Below are positions 4,954-61,939 of a stretch of 64,000 bases of DNA, piece by piece (the stretch's first letter is position 1; every line of letters begins with the position of its first letter). This DNA is from Stegostoma tigrinum. Its lineage: Eukaryota. The stretch spans positions 4,744,163 through 4,808,162 of the forward strand of contig NC_081394.1 of the NCBI RefSeq assembly GCF_030684315.1. The letters run 5' to 3'. Under the pieces are notes generated by a model. The model did not search any database. It saw only the letters and a program-made list of their open reading frames with translations, and was not told the origin of the DNA. Both the position numbers and the translations under genes were made by a program.

Positions 4954-5069
4954 CTACTGATCCAGATTTTGGGGAGTGAGGGGGTTGGGGAGCATCATTT
5001 GCTGTTCCAGCCCGTAATTCCCAACAAAGGTGTTTTGATCTCCCAGTGTCCATTCCAAAGTTTCCTCAG
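4954..5069 (-). CDS. Gene A terminal coding exon (AEETLEW...PQNLDQ*)
   Basis: Long (CT)n tract plus cacag acceptor; phase 1 continues the frame to TAG at 4956-4954. Confidence 0.62.
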
Positions 5070-8000
5070 CTGTGCCAGGGGAGAGAGAGAGAGGGAGAGG
5101 GAGAGAGAGAGAGGGAGGACCATGTTCATTGTCAGACACAGTGTGTACGCGCCACCTGGTGGGTGTAAGTGGACTTGCATGAGTCCAACAACACCCCAAA
5201 ACACCGACAAAACTCACTCAGGCACTTCACCGAGATAACACAGTGTGGAGCTGGATGAACACAGCAGGCCAAGCAGCATCTCAGGAGCACAAAAGCTGAC
5301 GTTTCGGGACTTACCCTTCATCCGAAACGTCAACTTTCGTGCTCCTGAGATGCTGCTTGGCCTGCTGCGTTCATCCAGCCTCACATTTTATTATCTTGGA
5401 ATTCTCCAGCATCTGCAGTTCCCATTATCACAGGCACTTCAACAACACATTTCTCTCGAATCTAGCCATCGCACACCACTTCGTCATTCATGCTGCCCAG
5501 GACGGGAGGGGCTGGAGGGGGTTACAGAGATAGGGAGGGGGTGTAGGGGCTGGAGGGGGTTACAGAGATAGGGAGGGGGTGTAGGGGCTGGAGGGGGTTA
5601 CAGAGATAGGGAGGGGGTGTAGGGGTGGAGGGGGTTACAGAGATCGGGAGGGGGTGTAGGGGCTGGAGGGGGTTACAGAGATAGGGAGGGGTGTTGGGGC
5701 TGGAGGGGGTTACAGAGAAAGGGAGGGGGTGTAGGGGTGGAGGGGGTTACAGAGATAGGGATGAGGAGGGGGTGGAGGGGTTACTGAGATAGGGAGGGAG
5801 GGGGTGACAGAGGTCGGAGTGGGAGGGAGATGAGCTGTTAAACACAGGAGTGACTGCTGCAGCTGACGTGAAAAGTTGATGCTGAGCTGTGATGCTCCAC
5901 GTAGTCAAACAGCTCTAACACTAACTTTACGTGTGAACGACGCACTGCCTGATGAAATGGGGGCGGGTCAAGCGGTGGCGCCCCCTACGTAGGGGAGAGG
6001 ACCCTGCTGGTCACTGGGAACAGCACAGGGAGAGCACACTCACTGAACACCCAGGGCCATCATCAAACTAAATAATCAGCCCCCTCTGACCAACTCACCC
6101 CTCACCCGAAAGCGCAGAGCCGTCCCTCAGCCANNNNNNNNNNNNNNNNNNNNNNNNNNNNNNNNNNNNNNNNNNNNNNNNNNNNNNNNNNNNNNNNNNN
6201 NNNNNNNNNNNNNNNNNNNNNNNNNNNNNNNNNNNNNNNNNNNNNNNNNNNNNNNNNNNNNNNNNNNNNNNNNNNNNNNNNNNNNNNNNNNNNNNNNNNN
6301 NNNNNNNNNNNNNNNNNNNNNNNNNNNNNNNNNNNNNNNNNNNNNCATACATTCACAAACGAAGAAAGATTTGGGGAGCCAGAGAGAGGGCTGGGATGAG
6401 AGACAGACAGACTGAAAGAGGGTCAGTCATAGATATTGAGAGAGAGAGAGAGAGACGGGGAAGGGAGGGGGGCTACAGGAGGAGGAGGGAGGCACAAAAG
6501 GAAGGAGATGGGGGAGAGGAGGACAAAGAGAGAGGGTCAAACAGAGGAAGAATGGAGAAGAGATGTAGCACAAAGGAGTGGGAGTGTGACAAGAGGATTT
6601 TCGAGAAGGGGAGAGAGAGACAGAGGGGTGGAGAAACATGATACTAAATAGAGAGGGGATGAGGTTAAACGACTGAGCAAAACAAGTTACCTGTTGCAGA
6701 GCGATCAACCTCGATGTGGTTCTGCCGGGCTGCAGAGCGCACACCTGTGTGTGAGAGAGAGAGACTGTGAAAGGAGTCAGAGAGGAGGGGGGAGGAGCAG
6801 CTGTTCGAAGCCCTAAACCCCAGAGAGACTGCCACAGCCACCTTCCCACGCCCCCGCCCACCCCCACTCCGAAAGCCACCCCACGGCCCACTCTCTCCAG
6901 AGAGAAAAGCCAGCCTATGCTTCCCTCTGATGAAGGGTCTAGGCCCGAAACGTCAGCTTTTGTGCTCCTGAGATGCTGCTTGGCCTGCTGTGTTCATCCA
7001 GCCTCACATTTTATTATCTATGCTTCCTCTGTCAGCTTTTGTGCTCAGTCCCTTCGGAAATCAAACCATAAAATCTACTGAGTTGATGACTGTGACACAG
7101 AATGGGCCATCAGTAAAACAAACGGGCCATATGGCCTCCTCCTGGTTAGTGGTACCAGCTCCGTGACCCAAGCAGGGGCTGGGGGTTGGGGGGGAGGTGG
7201 CTGAGGGGGTGGGGGGGTTGTTTTAGTGGGGGAAGGACAAGGAAGAGGTCTAGGCAGAGCCAGGCAGCACAGAAACAGGATCTTCGGTCCATCCTGTCCA
7301 TTCCAACCAGGCTTCTCAAAGTAAACTTGGCCCCTATCCCTCTAAACCCTTCCCTATCCATGTCCCCAATCTCTTAAATGCTGTAACCTGTACCAGCCCC
7401 CACCACTTCCTCTGGCAGCTCATTCCATACACGCACCACCCTCTGTGTGAAAAAGCTGCCCCTCAGGTCCCTTTTCAATCTTTCCCCTCTCACCTTTAAC
7501 CTATGCCCCTCTGGTTTTGGACTCCCCCCAACCTCTGCAGGGAAAAGATCTTGTCTATTCACCCTATCCATGGCCCTCATGGTTTTGTAAACCTCTATAA
7601 GGTCACCCATGAGTCTGACACTCCGAAGGAAAAATTCTCAGCTTTTCCAGCCTCAAACCTTCCAATCCCAAGATCATCCTGGTGAACCTTTTCCACACTC
7701 TTCCCAGTTTAATAGCATCCTTCCTGTAGCAGGGTGTCCAGAACTGAACACTGTCCTCCAGAAGTGACCTCTTACCTCTGAATTTTTTGTTCCATATCCA
7801 GACGATTGCAATCAGAAGGCACACACAGGCTATGACAGCAACTGTCACATAGAGAGCGATGAGGTAGTGAGGGTTAGCAGTTCTAAAAGGCAAGCTGGTG
7901 TTGCTGGAGGCATCTGCAGGAGAACGGGCAGAAAGGGGCAACTTTCAGCTCAAGGATAAAATTGTATCAGAGACAGTGGGAACTGCAGATGCTGGAGAAT

Positions 8001-11000
8001 CCGCGATAACAAAGTGTGGGGCTGGATGAACACAGCAGGCCAAGCAGCATCTCAGGAAGCCAAAAGCTGATGTTTCGGGCCTAGACCCTTCATCAGGGGG
8101 TCTAGGCATGAAACGTCAGCTTTCTTGCTCCTCTGATGCTGCTTGGCCTGCTGTGTTCATCCAGCCCTACACTTTGTTATCTCAACTTACAACTCAATGT
8201 GTTTTTTTTCCCGTGATAAAGCACTGTAACATGGTGCAGCTGTTCCTTCACAGCAGTGACACAATGAAGCCAACACATACAGTGACCATCCGTTAGCGAT
8301 GCGCTATTCGCGCTCACAGTTACTGAGCCTTGCCCTGGGACGTTGCATGGACTGGGCGGGACACATTCTCCACGCACACCCCCAGCAACCCTCAACTTCA
8401 CTCCACTCTGAGGGAGCACATCAGTTTCCAGAGCGCACACCGTGCTCTGAGCTAATCAATATCCCCATACATGGTGTCTGATTAGAATCCAGCAACATTC
8501 CCAGCGTAGAAGGAGCTTTACTCTGTGCTGTCCCTGCCCCAGGAGTGTTTGATGGGGGACAGTGTCGAGAGTGCTTTACTCTTATTTTTCCATCCTTTAT
8601 TCATTAACAGCCTGAGGGTGTTGCTGGCCGGACAGCATATATTTCCCATCCCTAATTGCCCAGACGGCAGTTAAGAGTCAACCACATCGCTGGGGTCTGG
8701 AGTCACATGTAGGCCAGACCAGTTAAGGATGGCAGTTTCTTTCCCTAAAGAACATTGGTGAACCAGTTGGGTTTTTTTTCCTGACAATTGACAATGGATT
8801 CACGGTCTTAGATTCTTAATTCCAGATATTTTTATTGAATTCAAATTCCACCATCTGCTGTGGCAGGATTCGAACCCAGGTCCCCAGAATGTTATCTGGG
8901 TCTCTGGATTAACAGTCCAGCCATAATACCACCAGGCCATTGCCTCCCCTCCCTCCCCCTCTGTATCTAACCCTGTGTTGTCTCTATCCTGGGAGTGTTT
9001 TAATAGGGTTGGGAGGGGAGAATGTTGAGTGAGTTTTACTCTTCAAAAATCCCGTGCTGACCCTGTACTCTCTCCCTACTGGAAGCCAGTGTGAGCGCTG
9101 AAAAGAATGATATTGAGGTCTGGAGCTCAGGTCCCTGTGTTTTGGAGTGACAGTTCACCGCTCTGCAACAGCGAGCTCACTTTGAAATCACTTACATGCC
9201 CAAACAATGGAATCCAGGCGCTGCTGAATCCTGCTGTTAAAGACAGAACAGCGGACTGACGTTCCCACAGCAGCAACGATCCTGAGGCTGCTGGTGACAT
9301 TGTACAGGCCAGAGACAGGATCCTGTTCCACTGAGGTGTTCACCTCAGCATCTCGGCCCAGAGGTCTCCCAGCATCATCCGTCCAGTTCACAACTGGAGC
9401 CGGGAAGCCTCCAAAGGAATGGCAGCTCAAATTCACGGCCAGACCCGCACCCAGAGATTCTCCTTGTGAAGCCGATAACACAGGAGGCTGGTAGGGAGCT
9501 AAAGCAGGGAAAGAGATATCTCAGTTTCAGACATTCACAGCGACCTGTGTTACTGACTGTATCCCTACTGATGTTAATCCCTCTCCCTCACACTGTCACT
9601 CAGTAACCCCTCTCCCCCCCAGGACCCTGTGTTACTGACTGTATCCCTACTGATGTTAATCCGTCTCCCTCAGACTGTCACTCAGTAACACTTCTCCCCA
9701 CCAAGGGCCCTGTGTTACTGACTGTATCCCTACTGATGTTAATCCCTCTCCCTCACACTGTCACTCAGTAACCCCTCTCCCCCCCAGGACCCTGTGTTAC
9801 TGACTGTATCTGTACTGATGTTAATCCCTCTCCCTCACACTGTCACTCAGTAACCCCTCTCCCCCCCAGCGCCCTGTGTTACTGACTGTATCCCTACTGA
9901 TGTTAATCCGTCTCCCTCAGACTGTCACTCAGTAACCCTTCTCCCCACCAAGGGCCCTGTGTTACTGACTGTATCCCTACTGATGTTAATCCCTCTCCCT
10001 CACACTGTCACTCAGTGACCCCTCTCCCCCCTCTGCCCCCCCCCCCCCCCCCCCGGGCCCTGTGTTACTGACTGTATCTCTACTGATGTTAATCCCTCTC
10101 CCTCACACTGTCACTCAGTAACTCCTCTCCCCCACAGCGCCCTGTGTTACTGACTGTATCCCTACTGATGTTAATCCCTCTCCCTCACACTGTCACTCAG
10201 TGACCCCTCTCCCCCCACAGCACGCTCTGTTACTGGCTGTTTTCCAGGATGGATGAGAGTGTGGAGGAGAGAAGACTTCCCCTACCTAAGAGGTATGGCC
10301 CGTTCTAAAGCCAGTGCCTACCAGCTATATACAGTCGCAGGTGACATGCATGAACCTTCTTGTCGTTGAGGAAGAAATAGCAGTGATATTCCACATCATC
10401 TTTCACAGTGAGGTTGCTCAGTTGCAGGGAGAGGTTTCCTCTGACTAACTCAGTCTTGGGGACTGTAGTTCTTCCTCTGTAATAACTTTCCACGTATTGT
10501 TCTTCAGGCTTCCCATTGGAAAAGACATAGGCAACCTTTTCGGGAGAAAACTGCCAATAAATTCGGGCTGACGTGAGAGAGACAGGCCCCATCACCTCGT
10601 AAATACAGGGTAATAATGCTTGACCTCGAACCAACCCAGTCACAGCACGGCCCGGTGCAGAGTCTGAAAGCACAGGCAATGACAGCAGAATTAAAGCCTA
10701 TTCTCAGCATGTTCAATCCCACAACATTCCCCAGCCCCACACCTCCCTGAGGGAGCAAGCCCCGCCACCACTCCGCTGAGCGTGTAACCCCCACACCATT
10801 CCCCCACCACCCTCCCTGCGAAAGTGACCTCCACACCATTCCACCCCCACTCCCTGTGAGAGTGTAGCCCCCACACCATGCCCCCCAACTCCCCGCGAAA
10901 GTGACCCCGACACCATTCCCCTCCCCCACTCCCTGCGAAAGTGACCCCCACACCATTCCCCCACCACACTCCCTGCAAAAGTGACCTCCATACCATTCCC

Positions 11001-11882
11001 CTCCCCCACTCCCTGCGAGAGTGACCCCCACACCATTCCCCTCCCCCACTCCCTGCGAAAGTGACCCCCGCACCATTCCCCTCCCCCACTCCCTGCGAGA
11101 GTGACTCCCACACCATTCCCCTCCCCCACTCCCTGCGAGAGTGACCCCCACACCATTTCCCTCCCCCACTCCCTGCAAAAGTGACCCCGACACCATTCCC
11201 CTCCCCCACTCCCTGCGAGGGTGACCCCCACACTATTCCCCCCCCGCGAGAGTAACCCCCACACAATTCCACCCCTCCCTGAGAGAGTGACTTCCACACT
11301 ACTCACCTCCCCACTCACTGCAAGAGTGAATCCACACCATTACCCACCACCCACTCAAATCCCAGTGGGAGCAGGTCTCGCACTGTCAGCTTCCAGACCT
11401 CCATCAGGTGACCCCTCAGCCTCCTCTTTCTGGGACAATGATCCAGGGCTCGATCCCGAGAATCGGAATCACTGATACGGGACGAGACGATCATGTGTCC
11501 AGTCCCAGCACCACAGCCAGATGCGGCCAACGTGAACACACTGCCTGTTCCCACAGACCCTCCCCACTGACCCACACCTCAGCTTCTCTCCCTTGTCCTC
11601 TCTTTGATCCCCATATTCCTCCTTACTCTCGCCTTCCGGCCATACACAGCTCAAGTCTTGGCTGCACCGACAGGGATGGCGATGCCACCCCTGGTCTAAT
11701 TACAGCTGCAACACCGGCTGGGCGAATTCATGCGGGCTATGCCCAGCCCAGCCATGGGATCGCGCTGTGCAGGAAGCAGCAAACATTGGAAGGAAGACTT
11801 TGGCACTGACTGTGTTACACCCACCTGAGCAGGCCCGAAGGACTTGCAGAAGGAAGACAGCAACAGCTGGAAACAGCTTCAT
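4954..11882 (-). CDS. Gene A: B7-family type I membrane protein (ICOSL/CD80/CD86-like), spliced CDS join(11882-11825,10663-10322,9498-9196,7913-7776,6744-6691,5069-4954), about 336 aa
   Basis: Six exons with AG/GT boundaries, all phase 1, total 1011 nt in one open frame: leader, IgV, IgC, TM, two tail exons. This is the classical B7 architecture. About 7 N-x-S/T sequons in the ectodomain. Confidence 0.88.
5233..5430. mobile_element. Inverted pair of Penelope terminal repeats (mini-element)
   Basis: GCTGGATGAACACAGCAGGCCAAGCAGCATC... followed by its reverse complement plus a one-sided tail. Confidence 0.75.
5500..5810 (+). repeat. 38-bp G-rich minisatellite (GTTACAGAGATAGGGAGGGGGTGTAGGGGCTGGAGGGG)n
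   Basis: Tandem repeats. Confidence 0.93.
6134..6345. other. Assembly gap
   Basis: Run of N. Confidence 1.
6691..6744 (-). CDS. Gene A cytoplasmic exon 1 (GVRSAARQNHIEVDRSAT)
   Basis: Pyrimidine tract plus cacag acceptor, donor CAG|GTAACT, 54 nt, phase 1-1, open in frame. Confidence 0.7.
6927..6956 (+). ncRNA. Minimal hammerhead-ribozyme motif in a solo Penelope terminal repeat (about 6925-7020)
   Basis: CTGATGA-a-GGGTCTAGGCCC-GAAAC-GTC-ag; CTATGCTTCC repeated at 6915-6924 and 7018-7027. Confidence 0.68.
7255..7770 (-). mobile_element. CR1/HER1-like LINE 3' fragment abutting the gene A TM donor
   Basis: VQFWTPCYRKD...RFTRM and GDLIEVYK...FFTQRVVRVWNELP. Confidence 0.85.
7776..7913 (-). 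CDS. Gene A stalk/transmembrane exon
   Basis: ctgcag| ... |gtaaga, 138 nt. LIALYVTVAVIACVCLLIAIVWIW followed by basic stop-transfer NKKFR. Confidence 0.9.
7968..8183. mobile_element. Inverted Penelope mini-element in gene A intron
   Basis: Same inverted structure, tail on the left side. Confidence 0.75.
8595..8950 (-). mobile_element. SINE-like interspersed repeat with L2-type 3' end (second copy about 61090-61440)
   Basis: Shared GGGTCTGGAGTCAC.TGTAGGCC.AGACC..TAAGGATGGCAGTTTC sequence. Confidence 0.6.
9196..9498 (-). CDS. Gene A IgC exon
   Basis: ctttag| ... |gtaagt, 303 nt. APYQPP, NLSCHSFGGFPAPVVNW, GLYNVTSSLRI, VRCSVFN match a B7 membrane-proximal C-type domain. Confidence 0.93.
9545..10245. 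repeat. ~82-bp minisatellite filling the gene A IgV-IgC intron
   Basis: About 8 copies of CTGTGTTACTGACTGTATCCCTACTGATGTTAATCC... Confidence 0.92.
10322..10663 (-). CDS. Gene A IgV exon
   Basis: ctttcag| ... |gtaggc, 342 nt. Motifs GQALLPC, RIYWQ, YRGRT, GNLSLQLSNLTVKDDVEYHC are typical of a B7 V-set domain. Confidence 0.93.
10790..11350. repeat. 40-bp minisatellite in the gene A leader-IgV intron
   Basis: (CCACACCATTCCCCTCCCCCACTCCCTGCGAGAGTGACCC)n. Confidence 0.92.
11825..11882 (-). CDS. Gene A signal-peptide exon (MKLFPAVAVFLLQVLRACS)
   Basis: Acceptor ttacag at 11889-11888, ATG at 11882, hydrophobic leader, phase-1 donor G|GTGGGT. Confidence 0.82.
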
Positions 11883-12281
11883 TCCACCTGTAAGACCAGG
11901 CAACAGGCTATTAGTGATCAGGGTCACAGGCAGACCGCACACCTGCTCACATGTCTCACACACACACTAACTCACAGAGAGAGCCACAAACCGACCGCTG
12001 CAATGACATTCAGGAAAAATGTTTGAGTTGGAAGAGGAACAGGTCAGTCATGAATTGAATTACAACAATTTCCACCTTAGAGCCTGAGAGTGGTGTGTTG
12101 GAGTCAACCCAGACAGGCAGGAGGTGCAGCATGAACAAACTCCCAGCAGAGGGCTGTGTGGGCACACTGTTTGGGATCAGAGCTCACAATGCAGAGATCC
12201 CACCTGAGCATTCCACACATTACAAAGAGCGGGCACTGGGCACGCTACAGTCTCAGTCACAACTCCTTCAACAATTGGTCA

Positions 12282-14430
12282 GGGGTCAGTGCTGAGGGAG
12301 CGGGCACTGTCGGAGGGTCAGTGCTGAGGGAGCGGGCACTGTTGGAGGGTCAGTGCTGAGGGAGTGGGCACTGACAGAGGGTCAGTGCTGAGGGAGCGGG
12401 CACTGTCGGAGGGTCAGTGCTGAGGGAGCGGGTACTGTCGGAGGGTCAGTGCTGAGGGAGTGCCGCACTGTTGGAGGGTCAGTGCTGAGGGAGCGGGCAC
12501 TGTCGGAGGGTCAGTGCTGAGGGAGCGGGTACTGTCGGAGGGTCAGTGCTGAGGGAGTGCCGCACTGTCGGGGGGTCAGTGCTGAGGGAGCGGGCACTGT
12601 CGGAGGGTCAGTGCTGAGGAAGCGGGCGCTGTCGGAGGGTCAGTGCTGAGGGAGCGGGCACTGTCGGAGGGTCAGTGCTGAGGGAGCGGGCACTGTCGGA
12701 GGGTCAGTGTTGAGGGAGTGGGCACTGTCCGAGGGTCAGTGCTGAGGGAGTGGGCACTGTCGGAGGGTCAGTGCTGAGGGAGCGGGAACTGTCGGAGGGT
12801 CAGTGTTGAGGGAGTGGGCACTGTCCGAGGGTCAGTGCTGAGGGAGTGGGCACTGTTGGAGGGTCAGTGCTGAGGGAGTGGGCACTGTCGGAGGGTCAGT
12901 GTTGAGGGAGTGCTGCACTGTCGGAGGGTCAGTGCTGAGGGAGCGGACACTGTCGGAGGGTCAGTGCTGAGGGAGCGGGCACTGTCGGAGGGTCAGTGCT
13001 GAGGGAGCGGGCACTGTCGGAGGGTCAGTGCTGAGGGAGTGGGCACCGTCGGAGGGTCAGTGCTGAGGGAGCGGGCACTGTCGGAGGGTCAGTGCTGAGG
13101 GAGTGCCGCACTGTCGGAGGGTCAGTGCTGAGGGAGCAGGCACTGTCGGAGGGTCAGTGCTGAGGGAGCGGGCACTGTCGGAGGGTCAGTGCTGAGGGAG
13201 TGGGCACCGTCGGAGGGTCAGTGCTGAGGGAGCGGGCACTGTCGGAGGGTCAGTGCTGAGGGAGTGCCGCACTGTCGGAGGGTCAGTGCTGAGGGAGCAG
13301 GCACTGTCGGAGGGTCAGTGCTGAGGGAGCGGGCATTGTCGGAGGGTCAGTGCTGAGGGAGCGGGCACTGTCGCAGGGTCAGTGCTGAGGGAGCGGGCAC
13401 TGTTGGAGGGTCAGTGCTGAGGGAGTGGGCACTGTCGGAGGGTCAGTGTTGAGGGAGTGCTGCACTGTTGGAGGGTCAGTGCTGAGGGAGCGGGCACTGT
13501 CGGAGGGTCAGTGCTGAGGGAGCGGGCGCTGTAGGAGGGTCAGTGCTGAGGGAGCAGGCACTGTCGGAGGGTCAGTGCTGAGGGAGTGCGCACCGTCGGA
13601 GGGTCAGTGCTGAGGGAGCGGGCACTGTCGGAGGGTCAGTGCTGAGGGAGCGGGCACTGTCGGAGGGTCAGTGCTGAGGGAGTGGGCACTGTTGAGGGTC
13701 AGGGCTGAGGGAGTGGGCACTGTTGGAGGGTCAGTGCTGAGGGAGTGCGCACCGTCGGAGGGTCAGTGCTGAGGGAGCGGGCACTGTCGGAGGGTCAGTG
13801 CTGAGGGAGCGGGCACTGTCGGAGGGTCAGTGCTGAGGGAGTGGGCACTGTTGAGGGTCAGGGCTGAGGGAGTGGGCACTGTTGGAGGGTCAGTGCTGAG
13901 GGAGTGCGCACCGTCGGAGGGTCAGTGCTGAGGGAGCGGGCACTGTCGGAGGGTCAGTGCTGAGGGAGTGGGCACTGTCGGAGGGTCAGTGCTGAGGGAG
14001 TGCGCACCGTCGGAGGGTCAGTGCTGAGGGAGCGGGCACTGTCGGAGGGTCAGTGCTGAGGGAGCGGGCACTGTCGGAGGGTCAGTGCTGAGGGAGCGGG
14101 CACTGTCGGAGGGATCAGTGCTGAGGGAGCGGGCACTGTCGGAGGGTCAGTGCTGAGGGAGTGCGCACCGTCGGAGGGTCAGTGCTGAGGGAGCGGGCAC
14201 TGTCGGAGGGTCAGCGCTGAGGGAGCGGGCACTGTCGGAGGGTCAGTGCTGAGGGAGTGCCGCACTGTCGGAGGGTCAGTGCTGAGGGAGCGGGCACTGT
14301 TAGAGGGTCAGTGCTGAGGGAGCGGGCACTGTCGGAGGGTCAGTGCTGAGGGAGCGGGCACTGTCGGAGGGTCAGCGCTGAGGGAGCGGGCACTGTCGGA
14401 GGGTCAGTGCTGAGGGAGTGGACACTGTCG
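12282..14430 (+). repeat. 32-bp minisatellite array, about 2.1 kb, in gene A intron 1
   Basis: Direct tandem repeats. Confidence 0.95.
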
Positions 14431-14477
14431 GTTTAATGTAACAGATCCCCACAGCCTGGACCCGGTGTGTACGTGAG

Positions 14478-14675
14478 GCAGTAGGAGCTGCAGATGCTGG
14501 AGAATCTGCGATAACAAGGTGTGGAGCTGGATGAACACGGGAGGCCCAGCAGCATCAGAGGAGCAGGAAAGCTGACGTTTTCTGAAGAAGAGTCTCGACC
14601 CGAAACCTCTGCTTTCCTGCTCCTCTGATGCTGCCTGGCCGGCTGCGTTCCTCCAGCTGTACACTGTGTTCTCTC
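14478..14675. mobile_element. Inverted Penelope mini-element in gene A intron 1
   Basis: Same family, diverged. Confidence 0.7.
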
Positions 14676-14763
14676 TGATGTGGTTTGGCGGGGCTGGTGT
14701 GGTGTTTTGGGACACTGGGAACGGTTGGGTCTCTGCGTAACACCAAGAAGAACAAGCACTCAC

Positions 14764-14840
14764 CTCCGTACTCCTAGATGAGAGGATTCTGACTGCGCTC
14801 AGCGGCCGGTTTCTTCTAACAGTGCCACAAGGCTCCCTCA
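14764..14840 (-). other. Probable non-coding first exon (5' UTR) of gene A
   Basis: Consensus donor GAG|GTGAGT at 14764/14763, about 100 nt downstream of a minus-strand TATAAAA; no ATG in the interval. Start is estimated. Confidence 0.6.
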
Positions 14841-14859
14841 CTCCTCTCTGAAGGGTTGC

Positions 14860-15050
14860 TTTGTTTTATAATCGCTCCGGAAGTTCAGAACCGCTGCGTT
14901 CTCGGTGACAGACCAATCACCTTTTGGATGTGTCAGCCCTCCCCACACTACCACCACACCACCCTCCCCTCCTCCTCTCCCCAGGGAGAATGTGGTGAAC
15001 GCACTGACCGTGGTGCAGTGGTGTCTGGACTGCAATGGGATCTTCCTGAT
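14860..15050 (-). promoter_or_regulatory. Candidate promoter of gene A (TATA, CCAAT, NF-kB motif)
   Basis: TATAAAA on minus strand at 14870-14864, GACCAATCA at 14911-14919, GGGATCTTCC (fits GGGRNNYYCC) at 15037-15046; locally CpG-rich. Confidence 0.55.
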
Positions 15051-15239
15051 CCTGTCACTTACACACTCTGGGGAGCTGTGAGGTCGGAGCTCAGTGTGAA
15101 CGCGAAAGCCCCAGCGCCAGCTTCCAGGCGCAGCGAGGGCGAAGCCCCGGCTCGAACATTAAACTCGCAAAGGGATCACACATCTCCCGGTCACTTTGTG
15201 TCCGAACACGTTAACCTCACGCATGAGAGACCAGGTGTA

Positions 15240-18200
15240 ACAGAGAGAGAGTCAGAGAGAGGGACAGAGAGAGAGAGAGAGATACAGTAACCGAGAGAGC
15301 GAGAGACAGTCAGAGAGAGGGACAGAGAGAGAGAGAGAGAGAGACAGTAACCGAGAGAGCGAGAGACAGTCAGAGAGAGAGAGAGAGAGAGAGAGGCAGA
15401 GTCAGAGAGACAGAGGGAGAGGGACAGAGTCAGAGAGAGATAATCACAGAGAGAGAGAGAGAGAGAGAGAGGCAGAGTCAGAGAGACAGAGGGAGAGGGA
15501 CAGAGTCAGAGAGAGATAATCACAGAGAGAGATAATCACAGAGAGAGAGAGAGAGGCAGAGTCAGAGAGACAGAGGGAGAGGGACAGAGTCAGAGAGAGA
15601 TAATCACAGAGAGAGAGAGAGGCAGAGTCAGAGAGACAGAGGGAGAGGGACAGAGTCAGAGAGAGATAATCACAGAGAGAGAGAGAGAGGCAGAGTCAGA
15701 GAGACAGAGGGAGAGGGACAGAGTCAGAGAGAGATAATCACAGAGAGAGAGAGAGAGGCAGAGTCAGAGAGACAGAGGGAGAGGGACAGAGTCAGAGAGA
15801 GATAATCACAGAGAGAGATAATCACAGAGAGAGAGAGAGAGGCAGAGTCAGAGAGACAGAGGGAGAGGGACAGAGTCAGAGAGAGATAATCACAGAGAGA
15901 GAGAGAGGCAGAGTCAGAGAGACAGAGGGAGAGGGACAGAGTCAGAGAGAGATAATCACAGAGAGAGAGAGAGAGGCAGAGTCAGAGAGACAGAGGGAGA
16001 GGGACAGAGTCAGAGAGAGATAATCACAGAGAGAGAGAGAGAGGCAGAGTCAGAGAGACAGAGGGAGAGGGACAGAGTCAGAGAGAGATAATCACAGAGA
16101 GAGAGAGAGAGGCAGAGTCAGAGAGACAGAGGGAGAGGGACAGAGTCAGAGAGAGATAATCACTGAGAGAGAGAGAGAGAGAGAGGCAGAGTCAGAGAGA
16201 CAGAGGGAGAGGGACAGAGTCAGAGAGAGATAATCACTGAGAGATGGTGGGGGGGAATAGAGTCAGAGAGAGCGGAATAGAGCAAGGAAGAGAGAAAGAT
16301 AGCGATCGAGAGAGAGGGACAGAGTCAGAAAGAGTGGTAGAGAGAGTGTGATAGAGAGAGAGAGAGAGAGAGCCAGAGAGAGTGATAGAGAGAGAGACAG
16401 AATCAGAGAGAGAGGGATTGAGTCAGAGAAAGAGACACAGAGAGACAGAGAGGGACACAGTCAGAAAGAGAGAGGCATACAGTCAGAGAGGGGGACAGAG
16501 TCAGAGAGAGAGACAGGCACACTGTCAGAGAGAGAGAGGCACACAGTCAGAGAGAGACAGGCACACACAGAGAGACAAAGAGAGAAAGACAGGGACAGAG
16601 TCAGAGAGAGAGAGAGAGGGGGAGAGGGACAGAGTCAGTGAAAGATAATCACTGAGAGAGGGAGAGGGACAGAGTCAGAGAGAGATAATCAGGGACAGAA
16701 GGAGAGGGACAGAGTCAGAGAGACAGAGGGAGAGGGACAGAGTCAGAGAGAGATAATCACAGAGAGACAGGTGGGGGGGAACAGAGTCAGAGAGAGTGGG
16801 ACAGAGCAAGGGAGAGAGAAAGATAGCGATCGAGAGAGAGAGAGTGATAGATAGAGAGCGAGATAGAGAGAGAGAGAGAGCCAGAGAAAGTGATAGAGAG
16901 AGAGAGACAGAATCAGAGAGAGAGGAACAGAGTCAGAGAAAGTGAGAGAGAGAGAGACAGCGTCAGAGAGAAAGAGGCAGACACAGAGAGACAGAGAGAG
17001 AAAGACAGGGACAGAGTCAAGAGAGAGAGAGAGGGACACAGTCAGAGAGAGAGAGAGGGATACAGTCAGAGAGAGAGAAAGACAGAGGGGGACAGAGAAA
17101 GGGAGAGAGAGAGAGACAATGACTGAGAGAAAGGACAGAGTCAGAGAGAGAGAGAGTGAGAGGGACAGAGTCAGAGAGAGAGAGAGTGAGAGGGACAGAG
17201 CAAGGAAGCGAGAGAGATAATGACTGAGAGAGAGACAGATTCAGAGAGAGAGAGGGACAGAGTCAGAGAGAGACTATTTGAGAGAGAGAGAGAGAAAGAG
17301 AGAGAGAGATACAGTCAGAGAGAGAGTTTGTGAGAGAGAAGCAGAGAGAGAGAGATGAAAAAGGAAAGAGACACAGAGATAGAAGCAGAGAGAGAGTTGG
17401 AGACAGAGAAGGAGGCAGAAAGAGGGCCAGATGGAGACAGAGAGAGTCACCCACAGAGATAAAGAGGGTGGCAGAGTGTGTGTGAGAGAGAGAGAGACAC
17501 ACACACATCAACAGATGCCTAGGTAGAGTCGGAGCGAAGAAGCAGAGGGAATGCAATGCACTCACAGAAACAGAGATAAACAAACAGAAAGGAAGAGAGA
17601 CATAGAGATAGTGATAAAGACCAAGAGACAGGAACAGCGTCAGAGAGACACAGACAGTGAGATAGAGAGAGAGAGGGAGAGAGAGACATGGATAGAGATG
17701 GAGAGGCATAGAGAGAGAAAATCAGAGAGCGATAGTCAGACAGAGAGAAGGAGGGACAGGGAGAGATACAGAAACAGAGTGGTACAGTCAGAGAGAGAGA
17801 GATACAGTAAAGGAGAAACAGAGAAAGAGAGAGAGAGAAACATAGAGCTAGAGAAATAGAATAAAAGACAGAGAACCACAGTGAGAGGCAACAGGAGACA
17901 GAGGCAGAGAGATAAAATCAGAGAGGGAGACTGAGAGAGAGAGAGATGGAGGGAGGGAGGGAGGGGCAGAGCGATGCACACTTAGAGATAGAGAGATAGA
18001 TTCAGAGAGTGAAGAAGAGAGAGACACATAGAAATAAGAGAGATACACAGAGATTAAGAGATGTAAAATCAGAGGGATAAGGAGACAGAGGGAGAGCGAT
18101 GGGTACAGAGACAGAGAGATAGAATCAGAGAGAGATAGACGGAGAGAGAGGAGTTTCAGTCAGAGAGAGAAAGAGAGTGAGAGAGGGAGAGATAGAGTCA

Positions 18201-19975: not shown

Positions 19976-20119
19976 AAAGTGTACCTTGAGCCAATATATA
20001 TTTCGTCAGCGTGTCTTCATATTCATTAGGGTGACCCTCACTGTTTCCTGAGGATAAACATACTTCGTAATCAATTCATGAGAAATTGAACTGGACCCAC
20101 CACATAAACTGACTTCACA

Positions 20120-48134: not shown

Positions 48135-49070
48135 ACCAGGCCTTTTGGTCCATCCAGTCCATGCTGACCATGTGCCCAAACTAAACTAGTCCCACCTGCC
48201 CGGTCCTGGCCCATGCCCCTCCAAACCTTTCCTCTTCATGTTCTTATCCAAATGTCTTTCAAATGTTGTAACTGAACCCACATCCACCACTTCCTCTGGA
48301 AGTTCATTCCACATGAAAACCATCCTCTCTGCAAAACAAAAATTGCACCAATGCTTTTTTAAAAATACTTCTTCTCTCACCCTAAAAATATTCTCCCCAG
48401 CTGTGAAATCCCCAGCCCTAGGGGAAAGACGCTGGTCATTCACCTTTTACACACCTCTTGTTATTTTATAAACCTCTATAAGGTCACCCCTCAGCTTCCT
48501 TAATTAGAGAGAAAAAAGTCCCAGCCTGTCCAGCCTCTCTTTGTAACTCCATTCCCAGCAACATCCTGGTAAATCACTTCCGAACCCTCTCCAGTTTCCT
48601 AATATCCTTCCTGTAACAGGGCGACCAAAACTGGACACAGTATTCCAGAAGAGGCCTCACCAAGGTCCTGTGCAACCCTAACATAATGTCCCAGCTCCTC
48701 TACTCAAAGGTCTGAGCAATGAAAGCAGGAATGCTAAATGCTTTCTTAGTCACCCTGTCTATATGTGATGCAAACTACCAAAAATTATGTTCCTGAACCC
48801 TTAGTTCTCTCTGTTCAATAACACTGCCCAAGGTCCTACCATTTATTATGTAGTCTTTACCAAAGTCAATATAAACCCTATTTGCATCTCAACGCCCATT
48901 GCCCAGTTGATCATGATCTCATTTTAATCTTGGATAACCTTCTTCACTTTCCACGAAACCACCAATTTAAGGGTCATCCGCAAACTTACTAACCCTACGT
49001 CCGATATTCTCACCCAAATCCTTTAAGTGATGACAAACAAAAGAGGACCCAACACGGACCCCTCTAGAAC
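48135..49070 (-). mobile_element. CR1/HER1-like LINE fragment
   Basis: WNELPEEVV motif and upstream degenerate RT sequence. Confidence 0.7.
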
Positions 49071-49867
49071 ACTGTCAATCTGTGATGGAGGACAGTGTAG
49101 AGGGAGCTTTACTCTGTATCTAACCCCATGCTGGCCCTGTTCTGGGAGTGTTTGATGAGGTCAGTGTAGAGGGAGCTTTACTCTGTATCTAACCCTGTGC
49201 TGTTCCTGTCCTGGGAGTATTTGATGGGGGACAGTGTAGAGAGAGCTTTACCCTGTGTCTAACCCTGTGCTGACCCTGTCCCTGGGAGTGTTTGATAGGA
49301 GCAGTGTTGAGGGAGCTTTACTCTGTATCAAATCCTGTGGGTGTCCTTGTCCTGGGGTTTTGTTGATAAAAGTGAATTTGGGAAGTTTTTAGTCAGTGTT
49401 GTTCTGTTTTGAATTATTTGTCATTGAATGTCAGACACAGAGCTTGATGAAGGGGTTAACCTTTCTGTGAAAGTTTATGTCAATTTGAACACGCCCATCA
49501 TTTAATATGACTTAGAGCTGTGTTCAAACCATTTGGAATGTGGTTTTGAAACTCTGTCAATACAGCATGACTCTCCAAGTTCGGGTCAAATGCAGAAACT
49601 TCTGCTCTGTTCTTGTGTGTGTGTGTGTTCCTGTCTGCTTCCCTGTTGACACTTTGGGTAAGTTTCTCAGATATTTTGTCCCTAGTTTCCTCAGTTGGTG
49701 CCTTTCGCCGCTGAGCTGTTTCAGGGACTGTGCCAGTTTCAGAACGCCACTGCCGTTCTTCATTTCTCTCTCACCGCCCTCCTCTCTGTCTATTTTGCGG
49801 TGTGTTTCACTCCTGTGTCTGTTTTAGTCAGTCTTTGGTCTCTCCTTCAGTTTCAGCGTCCCCTGTA

Positions 49868-50455
49868 TCTGGTGGCTCAGTGGTCAACACTGCAGCCTCA
49901 CAGCACCAGGGTTCTGGGTTCGATTCCAACCTCAGGCGACTGTCTGTGTGGAGTTTGCACATTCTCCCCGCGTCTGCGTGGGTTTCCTCCTACAGTCCAC
50001 AGATGTAAGTCATAGAGTCCCTACAGTGTGGAAACAGGCCCTTCAGCCCAACAAGTCCACACCGATCCTCAGAGCAGCCCCCCCTAATCTACACAGATCC
50101 CTAAACATTATGGGCAATTTTAAGCATGGACAATCCACCCACCCTGTACATCTCTGGACTGTGGGAGGAAACCCGCGCAGACCCGGGGAGAATGTGCAAA
50201 CACCACACAGACAGTCACTCAAAGGTCGAATTGATCCCTGGTGCTGTGAGGCCGCAGTGCCAACTATCATGCCACCCCATGTGTGGTGACAGGGTGGGCT
50301 GGCCAAGTTAAATTGCCTAGTAGTGTCCAGGGGTGTATAGGATAGACATGGGAAATGCAAAGGAAGGGGCAAGGGAGAAGGGGGAAGGGTGTGGTTGGGA
50401 TACTTTTTGGAGTGTCATGGGCTGAGTGGCCTGCTTTCACATTGAAGGGATTCTG
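49868..50455. mobile_element. Nested pair of HE1/V-SINE-like elements (minus copy about 50010-50280 inside a plus copy)
   Basis: Plus-strand head at 49870 is interrupted by an antiparallel copy, then resumes. Confidence 0.7.
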
Positions 50456-50521
50456 TGTGTCTTCTGCTTATGTCTATGTCACTTATTACCTGTGAGTATC
50501 TCTCTTTCCGGCCCTCCATCG

Positions 50522-50553
<32 letters not shown>

Positions 50554-50584
50554 TGTCTGCTACTGTTTCTCTTTTTCCCTGTGT

Positions 50585-50620
<36 letters not shown>

Positions 50621-51269
50621 TAAAGGCATAAATTTTTGTTTCTTTTTATATCTTTCCTTTCTCTCTAGTTTTATTCCGATCTCTCCCTGTCTCTTTCTTG
50701 ATCTGTTTCTCCCCCAAAGCCCCACAGTCCCTCTCCACACAGCCTTTGCTCTCACTGCGTCCTGGGAATGGGTCCAGAGGACCGGGTCCTCAAGCCCATG
50801 ACATCATTCCTGATCTGAGACTTCGTGTGTCTGTGCTTGCCTTGTCCACACCAACACGGGAACTGGGGTCATCCTGACAGATTTAAAACCAGCTGCAGGA
50901 ACAATTTCCTAAAATTCAGTGTGAATGATACTTTATTTCCACATCACTATTGAAAGGTCAGGTCAAAGTTTTAGATGGTAGCACCCTAGCAATTTCTCTG
51001 ACCTCCATATTAATTCCATCTGTTCCCTGTGTACATTTATATCTTCCAGAGCACCAGCATTTCACAGCCTAAATTCCAGAGAGCCTGTGTGAGATCATCA
51101 GTTGACATTTAGAAGCCCAGACAGTTCAGCAATCTTTGACTGTACACGTTCCTGGATTTAAAGAAATGGAACTGAGGTAAGGTCTATTGAATATCCTTCT
51201 GCTCACTCGTCCTCAGGACCTCATCTTTTTATTGCATCACAAATGGTCCATGATGGTCCTGTTTTGAAA

Positions 51270-52760: not shown

Positions 52761-52761
52761 C

Positions 52762-52813
52762 ATGATGGCTTTTTCCCTCAGCCTCTGCGTGATGGCCCTC
52801 GGCTCTGCAACAG
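52762..52813 (+). CDS. ICOSLG: Gene B signal-peptide exon (MMAFSLSLCVMALGSAT)
   Basis: ATG at 52762, hydrophobic leader, phase-1 donor CAG|GTAGGC; directly downstream of a CpG-rich CCAAT region. Confidence 0.7.
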
Positions 52814-57200: not shown

Positions 57201-60200
57201 TGCAAAACAATACTCTTCACTGTGTTGTGGCACATGCGACAACATGGTGGCCGACTGTTTAGCGCTGCTGCCTCACAGCGCCAGGAACCCAGGTTCGATT
57301 CTAACCTCGGGCAGCTGTCAGTGTGGAGTTTGCATGTTCTCCCAAAAGCTGCCAGACCTTCTTCAAGGTCCTCCAGTTTCCTCCAGAGTCCAAAGGAGTG
57401 CAGGATTGGCCATGGGCGGAAATGCAGGGACAGGATAACCGTAGGCAAGGTGGTGTTGGGCTCAACAAGTCGATTTGCCTGCTTCCCACACCGCAGGGAG
57501 TTTTGTTTTGAAAAGAATCGAATGATAGGATAGGACAGGTACAGCGAATGGCTCAGAAGCAAGATGACTTTTTTGGCGTGTACTGCAAGGGAAGTGGGGA
57601 TGTACAAATGGGGAAGTTTTGCTGCAACCTTTCCGAGCTTTGTGGAGACCACAGACAGAGAAACACGTCCTGCTCTTTTTTAGGGAAGGAGATGCTTGCC
57701 TTGGAAATAGTTCAGAGAGGGTTCACCTGGTTCGATCCTGGACCCCTTTCCTCAGACGCAGAAAATATTTGAGAAGAATTTGTTCGCTGGCCCTGGGTGT
57801 CACTTATTTCCCAACCCCTTTGTTGCCTAGGTGCAATGGCTCCATTCGGCCCATTGAGATTCCTCTGCCATTCTATGAGATCGTTGGCAATTCTGATCAC
57901 CCTCTCCTCTTCTCCTCCGTAAACTCGGGTTCCCTCCACCGACTGAAAATCAACCCCGTTGCTATGGATCTGGAGTCACGCGTAGGTGACCCCAGGGATG
58001 GGAGGGAGGTGTTGGGTAAAGGACAGCAGATAACCCAGGCATTCAGAAACAGTGTTTCTAACGAGGCAGTCGAGCTAGCTTTTCTGTTTTTAAAAGTTAA
58101 ATTCAAGTTGCAGGAGGTACCATGACCAAACCCCAGAGCATTAGTCAGGAGCTCTGCTGGGACATTTGAGTTGTAAAAGAGACTGGGACAACACAGTGTG
58201 GAGCTGGAGGAACACGGCAGGCCAGGCAGCATCAGAGGGAGCAGGAAAGCTGACGTTTCGGGTCTGGACCCTGGGGACTGTTTTCCAGTGCGGAATGAAC
58301 TTCCTGAGGAAGTGGTGGATGTGCGTACAATTACAATGTTTGAAAGACCTTGAGATAAGGACATGAATGGGAAAGGTTTGGATGGACGTGGGCCGGGAGC
58401 AGGCAGGTGGGACTGGTTGGGTTTAGGTCTACAGTCGGCATTGACTGGTGGACCAAAGTGTGTGACTACTCCTGCGATAATGTTACTGTCTCGCCATCTT
58501 CAGCCGATGCCCATTGGGGATGAACAAGAAGGAGAGGTGATCTTGTTAAAGGTTAGAGGATCCCGATAGAGCCAATTGAGAGACAGATTCAGAATGAAGC
58601 GTTTTACCTCAAGAAAAATGGAGGTGAACAAGCATCTGTTCTCTCAGACAGTTACGAGTGAAGAGATAGTCTGATGAGCAAAGGTTAAACAGGCTGGCAT
58701 TTTACACATTGGAGTTCAGACAAACGGGAGATTATCTCATTGAAACATATCAGATTCTTTAAGGGCATGACAGGGTAAATGCTGAGAGGATGTTACGCCC
58801 TCATGAGGAGAGTCCCGGACCAGAAGGTGTAGTCACAGAATAAAAGGGCACTAAATGTAAGACTGAGATGAGGAGGAATTTCTTCTCTCAGAGGGCTGTG
58901 AGTCTTTGGAACTCATTGTCTCAGAGAGCCGTTGGTGGCGGTGGGGGGCGGGGGGGTGCAGAGTCCTTGAGTATATTTAAGTCTGAGACAGATTCTTGAT
59001 CAGTTGGGGGCTTATGAGGAAGAGGGGACATGAGGAACATCATAGGAGCAGCCGTGATCCTATTGAATGGGGGAGCAGGCTTGGGGGCCAAACGGCCTAT
59101 TTCTTAAGGAGTGGTTGGCATCCATTCTACCAGCAGCAGACCCCCTAACCGCCTCGCCCCCAACTCCACTTGGAGAGCAGGAGGGATTCTGGGCCATTGG
59201 AGAATGTTGAGAATTGGGAATGTTCCCAAGGAATGTGGTTTCGGGGTGGAGGGGGGGGGGCAGCGGTGGAAGCTGGTGGCGGGGGGAGGAATTTGGGAAG
59301 GGCAGCGTCTGAGAGTGTGGCACGGTCAGTTCAAATGGGGACCTCCAGAAGGGAGTGGGATCCTTAAACCCAGAAGATGAGGGTGGGGTGGGTGGGAGGG
59401 GAGAGAGAAAACAGTGCAGGGGTCAACGGAGAGGGATGGGGATGGTGGCAAGTGGTGGGGGTGGGGCGCTAACGGAGATTGGCACGCAGGGAGCGATGGG
59501 CTGAATGGCCACCCGCCTCGCTGTGCGGCGATCCCATTAAACTTTCCTCCTCTGCTGTTCTGGCCAGCTACCAGTTGCGACGGAGTTCAGGAGCTCAATA
59601 TGACGGGCCCATACGGGGGCGAGGTGATCCTGCCTTGTTACTTGACAGAGGCCTACAGAGCATACTGGCAGACCGAGGCAGAAGATCGACCAGCGCTGGT
59701 GAACGCTTTTTGCCATGAGGAAGTGTCGGGCTGTGACAGCATCAGCGCCCAGTACATCAACCGCTCGTGCTTCGTCCACGCAGAGAAGTCGGGGAATTTC
59801 TCCCTTCGTCTCTGGGACCTCAGGCCCCGCGACGAGATGACCTATCAGTGCGTGCTGCAGTCACAGCAACGGTCCAATGTCAAGTGTTACAGACTCCGAC
59901 TGAGCATCGAAGGTACGGCTCATTTCTGAAGCAGCCCTGAAAGCGGCCCTTTGGTCCCGTTGCCCCCAGACTCGCCCGCTGTGAGGTGCCCACCGAAACA
60001 CTGTAGAAGGGAAGACGGTGGTGGCGACTTCGGCCAACCAAGACAGCGCCCCCAACTCAGACTTCGCCAATGTTACCGAGGCTCCCAGACCTGTTTCCTA
60101 AGCAATGAATTCCAGACACTGACCACCCCCTGGGGTGGAAATCATTTCCCTCGAATCCCCTCATAACCCCTTGCTCCCCGTTGCTCCCTCGCCCTTGTAT

Positions 60201-61939
60201 TTGACCCCTCTGCCAGAGGGAGAGCATTTCTCCCTGCCTGCCCTATCCATCGCCCTCAGAACTATGCACACCACAGTCAGAATGGATTCCAGCCTCAGCT
60301 TTCCGATTTGGAGCTTCATCTAGACCAAAAGCTCATGGTTTTGAGATAAGGCAGATTCAAAACAGAGATGACTTATCTCAAAGGGAGGTGAACCTGGTGG
60401 AATTCACTTGCGCACTACCCCCCACCACCCCAGTGCAGTGGATACTGTAAATTTAAGAAGGAGACAGCTTTTATTTAAATCAGTAATGAGTTATGTAGAG
60501 TAGGCAGGAGAAGAGAGCTGGTGCTGATCAGCTGTGATGTTATGGAATGGGGCAGCAGATTCGTGGGGGCTGAATGGCCTACTCCAGCTCCTAGCTCTGA
60601 TGTTGTTATGTTGTCTGTTCCAGCCTGAACAGTCCGTTCCCACAGCCAAATTGCTCCCTCCCTATCCTGGTGAATCGTCTCTGAGCCCTCTCCAGGGCTG
60701 CCACATCCTCCTCTGTAGCACAGTGACCAGAACTGTGGCTGTCCTCCAGCTGTGATCAAACTCACATCTTACAGCTCCAAACCCAAGCTCCCTCCGCATC
60801 TTACTGCCCCTTTACCGCAGGGAGTAGGCTAGTCGCATCGCAGAGTAGGTTTGGATCCTTGTGGCCCAGGGTGGCTAGCACTGCTGCCTCCTGGCGCCAG
60901 GGACCCGGGTTCGATCCCACCCTCAGGCGACTGTCTGTGTGGAGTTTCCCTGTGTCCGCTTGAGTTTCCTCTGGTTTCCTCCCACAGTCCAGGGATTTGC
61001 AGGCTAGGTGGAAATTGTCCCACAGTGTCCAGGGATGCGGAATTATGGGATGCTGTTTGGAGGGTCAATGTTGCCCAGTTGATCTACTTTTTAAACTCAT
61101 TCATGGAATCAGGGAATCACTGGACAGGCCAGCATCTAATGTCCATCCCTAATTTCCCAAGAGGGCAGCCACATTGCTGTGGGTCTGGAGTCACGTGTAG
61201 GCCCAGACCAGGTAAGGATGGCAGTTTCCTTCCCTAAAGGACATGAGTGAACCAGATGAGTTTTTCCCGACAATTGGCAATGGATTCGTGGTCATCACCT
61301 GACTCTCAATTCCAGATTTTTTTTTAAACTGATTTCAGCATCTGCCGTGTTGGGTATGAACCCCGCCCCAGGCCAGTCCCCAAAATATCACCCAGGTCTC
61401 TGATTAAATAGTCCAGTGATAAGACACAAGGCCATCACCTTCCCTGTTTCCATACTGTAGGGATTCTTCAAGTCGAAGTGGATGAGGACACCAGTTGAGG
61501 AGCTTGTGTGAGAATGGCAGGATGTCAGATTCCCTCTAATCAGGGCAAAGGTCAGGCCCTTCAAATCCGAACAGGGATCTGTGAGCATCCAGTCTCCCAT
61601 CTCCCACTGGTTGGCAAATCCATGACCTCTCTCTCTTCCTCTCTCCAGCCCAGGGGAGTCAGCCAAACATGCATGTCGCAAAGCAAAGACAGGGACAAGA
61701 GACAGTCCTGACCTGCTCAGTCACTGGGATCTACCCCAAGCCAGAGGTGAAGTGGCTCAATGAGACAGACAACAGTGAGCTACCGCTGAGCCTGGTGCAC
61801 ACGAAAGCAGAGAACAGGACAGACGAACGGTACAATGTGAAAAGCACTCTGAGACTAGAGCCGCACAGCATGGATAATATCACCTGTCAAATAATCAACA
61901 ACAGGAGCAAAGAGGTCATTTGGCATGTCAGACACATGG
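52762..61939 (+). CDS. ICOSLG: Gene B: ICOS-ligand-like B7-family protein, 3'-partial, join(52762-52813,59568-59912,61649-61939,...)
   Basis: Leader, IgV and IgC exons, all phase 1. YWQT, YINR, GNFSLRLWDLRPRDE..YQC and GIYPKPEVKWLNETDNSEL closely recall mammalian ICOSL (YWQT, YRNR, GDFSLRL..PQDE..FHC, GYPRPNVYWINKTDNSLL, recalled from memory). Orthology is inferred. Confidence 0.72.
53237..53567. other. Assembly gap
   Basis: Run of N. Confidence 1.
55175..56180. mobile_element. Cluster of three short Penelope terminal-repeat copies (about 55175-55290, 55438-55518, 56060-56180); others near 25466-25560, 25750-25865, 28100-28225, 58185-58272
   Basis: Shared GCTGGATGAACACAGCAGGCCAAGCAGCATC core; ATCTGTTGGT flanks the 55438 copy on both sides. 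Confidence 0.7.
57245..57500 (+). mobile_element. HE1/V-SINE-like element (others about 39613-39722 and 60868-61050)
   Basis: GCTGCCTCACAGCGCCAGG..CC.GGTTCGAT head and core. Confidence 0.65.
57520..59105 (+). mobile_element. Several diverged CR1-type fragments in gene B intron
   Basis: ALEIVQRGFT, GATTATCTCATTGAAACATA, TTCTTCTCTCAGAGGG..TGGAAC motifs. Confidence 0.55.
59568..59912 (+). CDS. ICOSLG: Gene B IgV exon (7 cysteines)
   Basis: Pyrimidine tract + ggccag| ... |gtacgg, 345 nt; GGEVILPC, AYWQ, GNFSLRL, DEMTYQC. Confidence 0.92.
61649..61939 (+). CDS. ICOSLG: Gene B IgC exon
   Basis: (CT)-rich tract + ctccag| ... |gtaagc, 291 nt; VLTCSVTGIYPKPEVKW, YNVKSTLRL, NITCQIIN. Confidence 0.92.

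Follow-up and report, generated by a model that had tools for sequence, protein, structure and literature searches.

Introduction

Among described proteins, the closest to the two genes considered here are the B7-family ligands ICOSL (also ICOSLG, B7-H2 or CD275), CD80 and CD86 (B7-1 and B7-2), CD276 (B7-H3) and B7-H4 (VTCN1). Human ICOSL is a single gene. We analyzed a 64,000-nucleotide stretch of the zebra shark (Stegostoma tigrinum) genome, here called the window (contig NC_081394.1, positions 4,744,163 to 4,808,162 of the forward strand), and found two intact B7-family genes in divergent orientation, gene A on the minus strand and gene B on the plus strand. Like ICOSL, both proteins consist of a signal peptide followed by immunoglobulin (Ig) V and C domains (IgV and IgC), lack the glycine of the F-strand motif D-x-G-x-Y-x-C and keep a tyrosine and a glutamine in the C strand; B additionally carries the C-domain motif W-x-N-x-T-D and A the tail motif [YF]-x-G-V. 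They differ from ICOSL in their low identity to it (26-27%), in occurring as several copies per shark, in having extra V-domain cysteines and an arginine at the position equivalent to ICOSL Y51 and, for B, in lacking a modelled tail.

PMC7545189 describes the AGFCC' face of the B7 V domain as binding a proline motif in the FG loop of the CD28-family receptor and names Y51, Y53, Q55, L114, L116, Q118, G121 and F122 among the ICOSL residues that contact ICOS. Cartilaginous fish possess two or three co-orthologs of CD28, CTLA4 and ICOS with a P-[P/L]-P motif, for which PMC11599192 reports no one-to-one mammalian match. Annotations of putative B7 genes exist for the elephant shark, according to PMC6795676.

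A and B are database-annotated members of the known B7 family and not a new kind of system. What is new here is the motif W.N.TD[NS] in B, an ICOSL-like tail motif in A and the lack of a tail in either B model, together with an end that resembles a glycosylphosphatidylinositol (GPI) signal. The reading we favor, with about even confidence, treats the two genes as old paralogs within the ICOSL lineage and as likely ligands for CD28-family receptors of the shark, A being transmembrane and B GPI-anchored or secreted.

Results

The window contains two divergent B7-family genes

A sequence-only reading of this window had proposed two leader-IgV-IgC genes transcribed away from each other. The gene models bear this out: all eight motifs that it quoted lie where it had placed them, the RefSeq models match and GT-AG borders are found at all eight introns of the two genes. 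Gene A has six coding exons (minus strand, 11882-4954) whose spliced translation equals the RefSeq protein exactly; its V exon is a 100% match to zebra shark XP_059497274.1, a 336 amino acid protein named 'CD276 antigen-like'. Gene B has four coding exons inside the window (plus strand, 51166-61939) whose translation corresponds to the first 233 residues of both RefSeq isoforms, with a 100% match of its V exon to zebra shark XP_048379904.1 and XP_048379905.1 ('ICOS ligand-like', 272 and 234 amino acids). Both genes follow the B7 family plan of a signal peptide, an IgV and then an IgC domain, with one exon per domain and phase-1 introns. All four Ig exons score above the Pfam cut-offs (V-set, 32.2 and 28.6 bits; C2-set_3, 43.8 and 50.2 bits). 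A B7 profile matches only four of the 1831 six-frame open reading frames (ORFs) of the window (E ≤ 1e-18; next best E 0.32), so the matches cannot be put down to chance and a third B7 gene is absent from the window. Two features of gene B had been overlooked in the first reading, namely its 11-nt first coding exon and the want of a transmembrane exon. Contigs of four sequencing runs (DNA-like) over 53600-64000 span the IgV and IgC exons of B with no listed difference there. N gaps are present at 6134-6345 in the last intron of A and at 53237-53567 in the leader-IgV intron of B, and the links across them are those of the RefSeq models.

The start codons of the two genes are 39,284 bp apart. The sequence-only reading had given about 38 kb as the distance between promoters; no promoter was located, and the figure describes the distance between coding regions. 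A splice acceptor precedes the ATG in the leader exon of A by 5 nt, so gene A begins farther upstream. By eye, a candidate upstream exon of A with an acceptor, a short ATG frame out of phase with A and a donor is visible at 19127-19189 (minus strand).

Both proteins are placed with ICOSL and CD80/86

A and B have the B7 V+C fold and are placed with ICOSL and CD80/86, away from CD276. On solved chains, A scores 73.8 bits against ICOSL, 44.3 against CD80 and 31.5 against CD86. The best match of B is ICOSL at 65.4 bits; it scores 36.7 on CD86, 36.4 on CD80 and 32 on single-unit CD276. A caecilian CD80 used as a control scores 104 bits on CD80 and 47.4 on ICOSL; unlike this control, neither A nor B scores higher on CD80 or CD86 than on ICOSL, and the earlier suggestion that both proteins lean to ICOSL holds. 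On group profiles that differ in size (3-7 rows each), B scores 114.7 bits on tetrapod ICOSL, compared with 40-93 on the six other profiles (fish, 93.1; sister group of A, 86.5; A orthologs, 84.9; CD80, 84.2), in agreement with its proposed closeness to ICOSL. The corresponding scores of A are 193.7 for its sister group, 166.2 for fish, 140.1 for ICOSL, 135.7 for CD80 and 99.9 for CD276.

AlphaFold models of A and B have mean predicted local distance difference test (pLDDT) values of 83.8 and 86.6. For both models the top Foldseek match is human ICOSL (6x4t) at 26-27% identity, for A narrowly ahead of butyrophilin and CD276. The ESM Atlas gave leads only: searched by features, A led to ICOSL-named clusters and B to generic Ig clusters, and searched by structure, B led to ICOSL-named clusters.

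Separate trees were made from 114 of 167 V+C regions, from 67 (a quick tree) and from 47 hand-picked rows (a careful one). Labels in the 47-row set were taken from source names (23 rows) or from the solved-structure search (two rows, ICOSL and CD276), or were assigned by us, in part from tree position (22 rows). In the 47-row tree, A and B lie inside a 39-row ICOSL and CD80/86 clade (97/90) that leaves CD276 and the butyrophilins outside. CD80 and CD86 thus occupy the same tree branch as A and B, and they have the R-x-Y-W-Q C strand as well. Five shark A orthologs (Stegostoma, Rhincodon, Hemiscyllium, Mustelus and Cetorhinus) form a clade (100/98), and its sister is a second elasmobranch group (95/87). 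Neither A nor B falls in a supported clade with tetrapod ICOSL in the best tree. When only V domains are used, A groups with Pristis and Hypanus ray proteins (98/98) to the exclusion of B. Because the V domain of A has ray orthologs that exclude B, we infer that the split between A and B is older than the shark-ray divergence. The C-only tree did not recover the A clade, and neither single-domain tree placed B. Two proteins in the set, P0026 (Pristis) and P0048, have nearly identical C domains and V domains in different clades, a pattern that points to gene conversion or an exchange of domains between paralogs in rays.

Just one of eight approximately unbiased (AU) tests fell under 0.05, and the tree alone therefore fixes little beyond the broad branch. 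A union of A with its sister group and ICOSL gave p=0.27; one of A with its sister group and the fish group (p=0.18) is neither shown nor rejected.

Membrane anchors and tails

Gene A encodes a predicted type-I transmembrane protein with a hydrophobic helix and a 62-residue tail. Directly after the helix stands a [YF]-x-G-[VAC] motif that is found in all four tailed A orthologs, in both ray A-type proteins and in five of eight tetrapod ICOSL or ICOSL-like rows, with a further such row carrying YAG-D in its place. The same position lacks the motif in CD80-like (0/3), CD276 (0/2) and bony-fish (0/7) rows.

Neither RefSeq model of gene B has a cytoplasmic tail, and the modelled last exon lies outside the window. 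GPI signals combine a small-residue omega site 20-30 amino acids from the end, a polar spacer, a terminal hydrophobic stretch and the absence of a tail. By inspection and hydropathy of the RefSeq model, the long isoform of B fits this description: small residues (S-N-A-A-A) are followed by a polar spacer and a moderately hydrophobic stretch of 19 residues that runs to the C-terminus. Hydropathy peaks at 1.71 with three residues after the peak, compared with 2.31-3.48 for 36 of the 38 rows listed. Besides B, the peak is low in an 'ICOS ligand-like' protein of the axolotl (Ambystoma, P0089), which has the same GPI-signal-like end and no supported tree grouping with B. The long isoform of B is thus predicted to be GPI-anchored, with addition probably near Asn244, and the short isoform, which terminates one residue after the IgC exon, is predicted to be secreted. 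Seven candidate acceptors would give the Val-stop end of the short isoform, the best of them at 63923 (plus strand). B7-H4 provides a precedent for a GPI-linked B7 protein, as its partial sensitivity to phosphatidylinositol-specific phospholipase C (PI-PLC) suggested a GPI anchor according to a review (PMC3817299). B differs from B7-H4 in being ICOSL-like by sequence and in having no VTCN1 chain among its 47 solved matches.

It is possible, though somewhat unlikely, that B is an ICOSL-like ligand of the ordinary transmembrane type or no more than a secreted decoy, in which case its GPI-like end would reflect an error in the gene model or a minor isoform. Consistent with this, the exon in question is modelled beyond the window, the short isoform ends where it does and models in this family do err: two whale shark models (P0002 and P0005) have ends that match window introns (6668-6751 and 60209-60283) and look like annotation errors through apparent intron read-through. 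However, read-through seldom gives a whole GPI-signal pattern such as that at the end of B, the sequence obtained by reading through the B donor is not hydrophobic, and the axolotl protein has the same kind of end. At none of 186 AG sites in the last 2 kb of the window does a transmembrane exon begin (best hydropathy 1.36).

ICOSL marks and cysteines

The marks of ICOSL appear to be divided between the two genes: the C-domain signature is found in B, along with a short first exon of phase 2, and the juxtamembrane [YF]-x-G-V tail in A. The pattern W.N.TD[NS] occurs in nine of 196 fetched proteins, which comprise the two B isoforms and seven ICOSL records; it is also present in human ICOSL and is missing from A. 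In the C strand of the V domain, both proteins retain a Tyr and a Gln equivalent to ICOSL Y53 and Q55, while the Y51 equivalent is Arg.

The F-strand glycine, the loss of which had been read as an ICOSL mark, is missing in 26 of the 47 rows. All six tetrapod ICOSL rows lack it, compared with none of four CD80-like and none of three CD276 rows, so that its loss does separate tetrapod ICOSL from these two groups. It is labile within the relatives of A: four of five A orthologs are without the glycine, and the Hemiscyllium ortholog and all seven rows of the sister group retain it.

An extra G-strand cysteine is present in both genes, as first noted, but is weak as a common mark. It lies seven residues before the end of the V exon in A and eight in B, one residue out of register, and is probably not the same position in the two proteins. 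On a beta strand, a shift by one residue likely puts the two cysteines on opposite faces. A cysteine in the register of A is found in five of five A orthologs, two rays and five of seven bony-fish rows; apart from B, no row of the 47 has one in the register of B. Two bony-fish proteins, P0035 (Amia) and P0059, have the cysteine in the register of A and none in the F strand, and the former may replace the latter in the core disulfide. The V domain of B contains seven cysteines, and the six covered by a whale shark fragment are all conserved; one may be free for dimer formation. A C25-C128 disulfide is predicted in B, and C126 of A is predicted to be buried close to the C39-C114 pair.

Gene A had also been described as a mosaic of CD80-like and ICOSL-like features. 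This description is not supported, as its 'CD80-like' motifs are not diagnostic: RIYWQ occurs in five of the 47 rows, none labelled CD80, and GGFP.P, in the form GG[FY]P.[PA], in 30. Both were rejected as CD80 marks. We likewise rejected L[YW]NV[TS]S as a marker, since its 12 rows include two CD80-like proteins and no tetrapod ICOSL ortholog.

Origin of the pair

The sequence-only reading attributed the two genes to an old local inverted duplication. In its strict form, in which A and B are each other's closest relatives from one duplication of an ICOSL-like gene and B then evolved fast, we consider this unlikely. A and B are indeed neighbors of opposite orientation that no B7 gene separates, the AU test keeps both B with the A orthologs of five sharks (p=0.33) and B with carpet-shark A only (p=0.099), and the free tree puts B, weakly (73/75), as sister to A plus its elasmobranch relatives. 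However, the supported sister of A is the other elasmobranch group or, for V alone, the rays. Identity between A and B is 29% over 217 columns (BLAST) and 25% in the alignment, B fits the tetrapod ICOSL profile better than that of the A orthologs and the G-strand cysteines are out of register. No non-repeat DNA similarity was found between the two gene regions, which have only repeats in common. The sister pairing proposed earlier is thus unproven, although not rejected, and its placement of both genes in the ICOSL lineage is reasonable.

A second origin would make the pair a relic of an ancestral linkage between ICOSL and CD80/86; B would then be orthologous to ICOSL, and A would correspond to CD80/86 in the shark. 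The profile score of A for CD80, which in that profile is amphibian, approaches its score for ICOSL, its mean identity to CD80-like rows (30-31%) slightly exceeds that to ICOSL (28%), and the union of A with CD80 is not rejected by the AU test at 5%. In the caecilian Rhinatrema, an ICOSL-like record (P0068/P0180) and CD80 (P0120/P0182) are assigned to a contig of equal length and have accessions about 80 apart, which may hint at linkage of the two genes. We nevertheless regard this origin as distinctly unlikely: on solved chains A prefers ICOSL over CD80 and CD86, the reverse of a real CD80, it has the ICOSL-type tail motif that all three CD80-like rows lack, and the glycine missing from most A orthologs is kept in four of four CD80-like rows.

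That A is shark CD276, as its RefSeq name has it, is very improbable, for although CD276 is its best solved match by sequence (79.9 bits), a true CD276 reaches 314-327 bits when scored on these single-unit chains (326.5 on chain 9lme, where A reaches 77.4), about four times the score of A, and lies in a separate clade whose union with A is rejected (AU p=0.036).

Relatives and database status

A full-library search with gene A returned 2146 matches at E ≤ 0.001. The best named single-unit matches among the 150 listed are from Hemiscyllium (51%), Mustelus, Cetorhinus, Heterodontus, Rhincodon, Pristis, Heptranchias, Hypanus and Amia. Gene A, which had been suspected to be an undescribed B7 member, is already in databases under a name that looks wrong, and orthologs of it are present in four further sharks, Rhincodon, Hemiscyllium, Mustelus and Cetorhinus. 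The elasmobranch and bony-fish proteins called 'CD276-like' or 'ICOS ligand-like' include the A orthologs, and two rays and five of seven bony-fish rows among them share the G-strand cysteine in the register of A; these names are automatic only. For gene B, a word-based and therefore insensitive search with the V exon and the whole protein found only its own cluster and one distant carp protein. The cluster holds a V-domain fragment of the whale shark that is identical at 95 of 104 positions. Whale shark has A-, B- and C-type records, giving several copies per shark, and a number of non-mammalian vertebrates carry ICOSL-like genes in multiple copies.

We found no paper on these two genes or one defining the elasmobranch and bony-fish group of A in a literature search that left most subscription journals outside, and novelty in print is not established. 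PMC9245511 gave no match to the terms used, and PMC3964593 contains no match in its main text and one text supplement; its picture tables may bear on the question.

Exons of both genes and the interval between them are listed in Table 1. No other genes were found in the window by a Pfam scan of 150 of 201 filtered ORFs, the three matches of which were all transposon fragments. These include a weak GIY-YIG match at 25226-25480 (minus strand) and RNase H-like and integrase zinc-binding pieces at 36271-37194 (minus strand).

Table 1. Coding exons of the two B7-family genes and the interval between them (window coordinates).
Feature	Position	Strand	Description
Gene A leader exon	11825..11887	-	Signal peptide; acceptor 5 nt before ATG at 11882; upstream non-coding exon implied
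Gene A IgV exon	10322..10663	-	C39-C114 pair, R-I-Y-W-Q C strand, extra Cys126 in strand G
Gene A IgC exon	9196..9498	-	Pfam, translation
Gene A stalk and transmembrane exon	7776..7913	-	Hydropathy 3.01 over 17 aa; terminates in F-R-G of [YF]-x-G-V
Gene A first cytoplasmic exon	6691..6744	-	RefSeq model translation
Gene A last coding exon with stop codon	4954..5069	-	RefSeq model translation
Interval between coding regions	11888..51165		39.3 kb, repeat-rich; no further B7 exon
Gene B first coding exon	51166..51176	+	11 nt, phase 2
Gene B leader exon	52761..52813	+	RefSeq model translation
Gene B IgV exon	59568..59912	+	7 Cys: 25, 45, 70, 77, 89, 116, 128; R-A-Y-W-Q C strand
Gene B IgC exon	61649..61939	+	ICOSL-type W-x-N-x-T-D-N motif; next exon of long isoform (GPI-signal-like) beyond window

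Discussion

If A and B are old paralogs of the ICOSL lineage, they would act as surface ligands for CD28-family receptors on shark T cells. The AGFCC' face of their V domains would bind the P-[P/L]-P loop of these receptors, as suggested by a Tyr and a Gln in their C strands that correspond to ICOSL Y53 and Q55. As a transmembrane ligand, A may be able to carry a signal through its tail. B, if lipid-anchored or secreted, could signal to T cells but would have no tail through which to signal back.

Several observations weigh against this reading. The best solved match of A by sequence is CD276 and not ICOSL, and its profile scores for ICOSL and CD80 are close. ICOSL rows were part of the alignments from which the AlphaFold models were built, and this may bias the fold search. 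The 47-row set was seeded with A and contains no mammalian CD80 or CD86 and no named PD-L1, VTCN1 or HHLA2. In the resulting tree the basal branching lacks resolution, B sits unplaced on a long branch (1.83), and the AU test accepts B with ICOSL (0.42), with CD80 (0.41) and with A (0.33) almost equally and does not reject A with CD80 at 5% (p=0.067). Among the motifs, W-x-N-x-T-D is present in just three of the six tetrapod ICOSL rows of the tree, and the tail motif of zebra shark A (7776-7790, minus strand) has Phe where its orthologs and tetrapod ICOSL carry Tyr. The F-strand and FG-loop residues of ICOSL that contact its receptor are not visibly kept in A or B, where they differ or cannot be aligned. 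Finally, the GPI reading of B comes from inspection of a RefSeq-predicted exon outside the window.

A bolder version, which we offer tentatively and consider rather unlikely, holds that B is the true shark ICOSL ortholog turned GPI-anchored and tail-less, and that A belongs to a separate, unnamed ancient B7 subfamily of sharks, rays and bony fish that is marked by the G-strand cysteine and keeps an ICOSL-type tail. If true, sharks would split the forward and reverse signaling of ICOSL over a linked pair of genes, in parallel with the independent diversification of their CD28/CTLA4/ICOS-like receptors.

With A and B read as old ICOSL-lineage paralogs, the part worth testing is the predicted GPI anchor of B together with the division of ICOSL marks over two genes. 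For the ICOSL lineage, an ICOSL-like ligand that is anchored by a lipid and has no tail would be unusual in topology. The analysis also flags a misleading database name, as A is not CD276. PMC11599192 leaves open the ligands of the shark CD28/CTLA4/ICOS-like receptors, and the two genes offer concrete candidates with which to fill a matrix of receptor-ligand binding in sharks. Such a matrix would show whether the division of labor between CD80/86 and ICOSL predates the split between sharks and bony fish.

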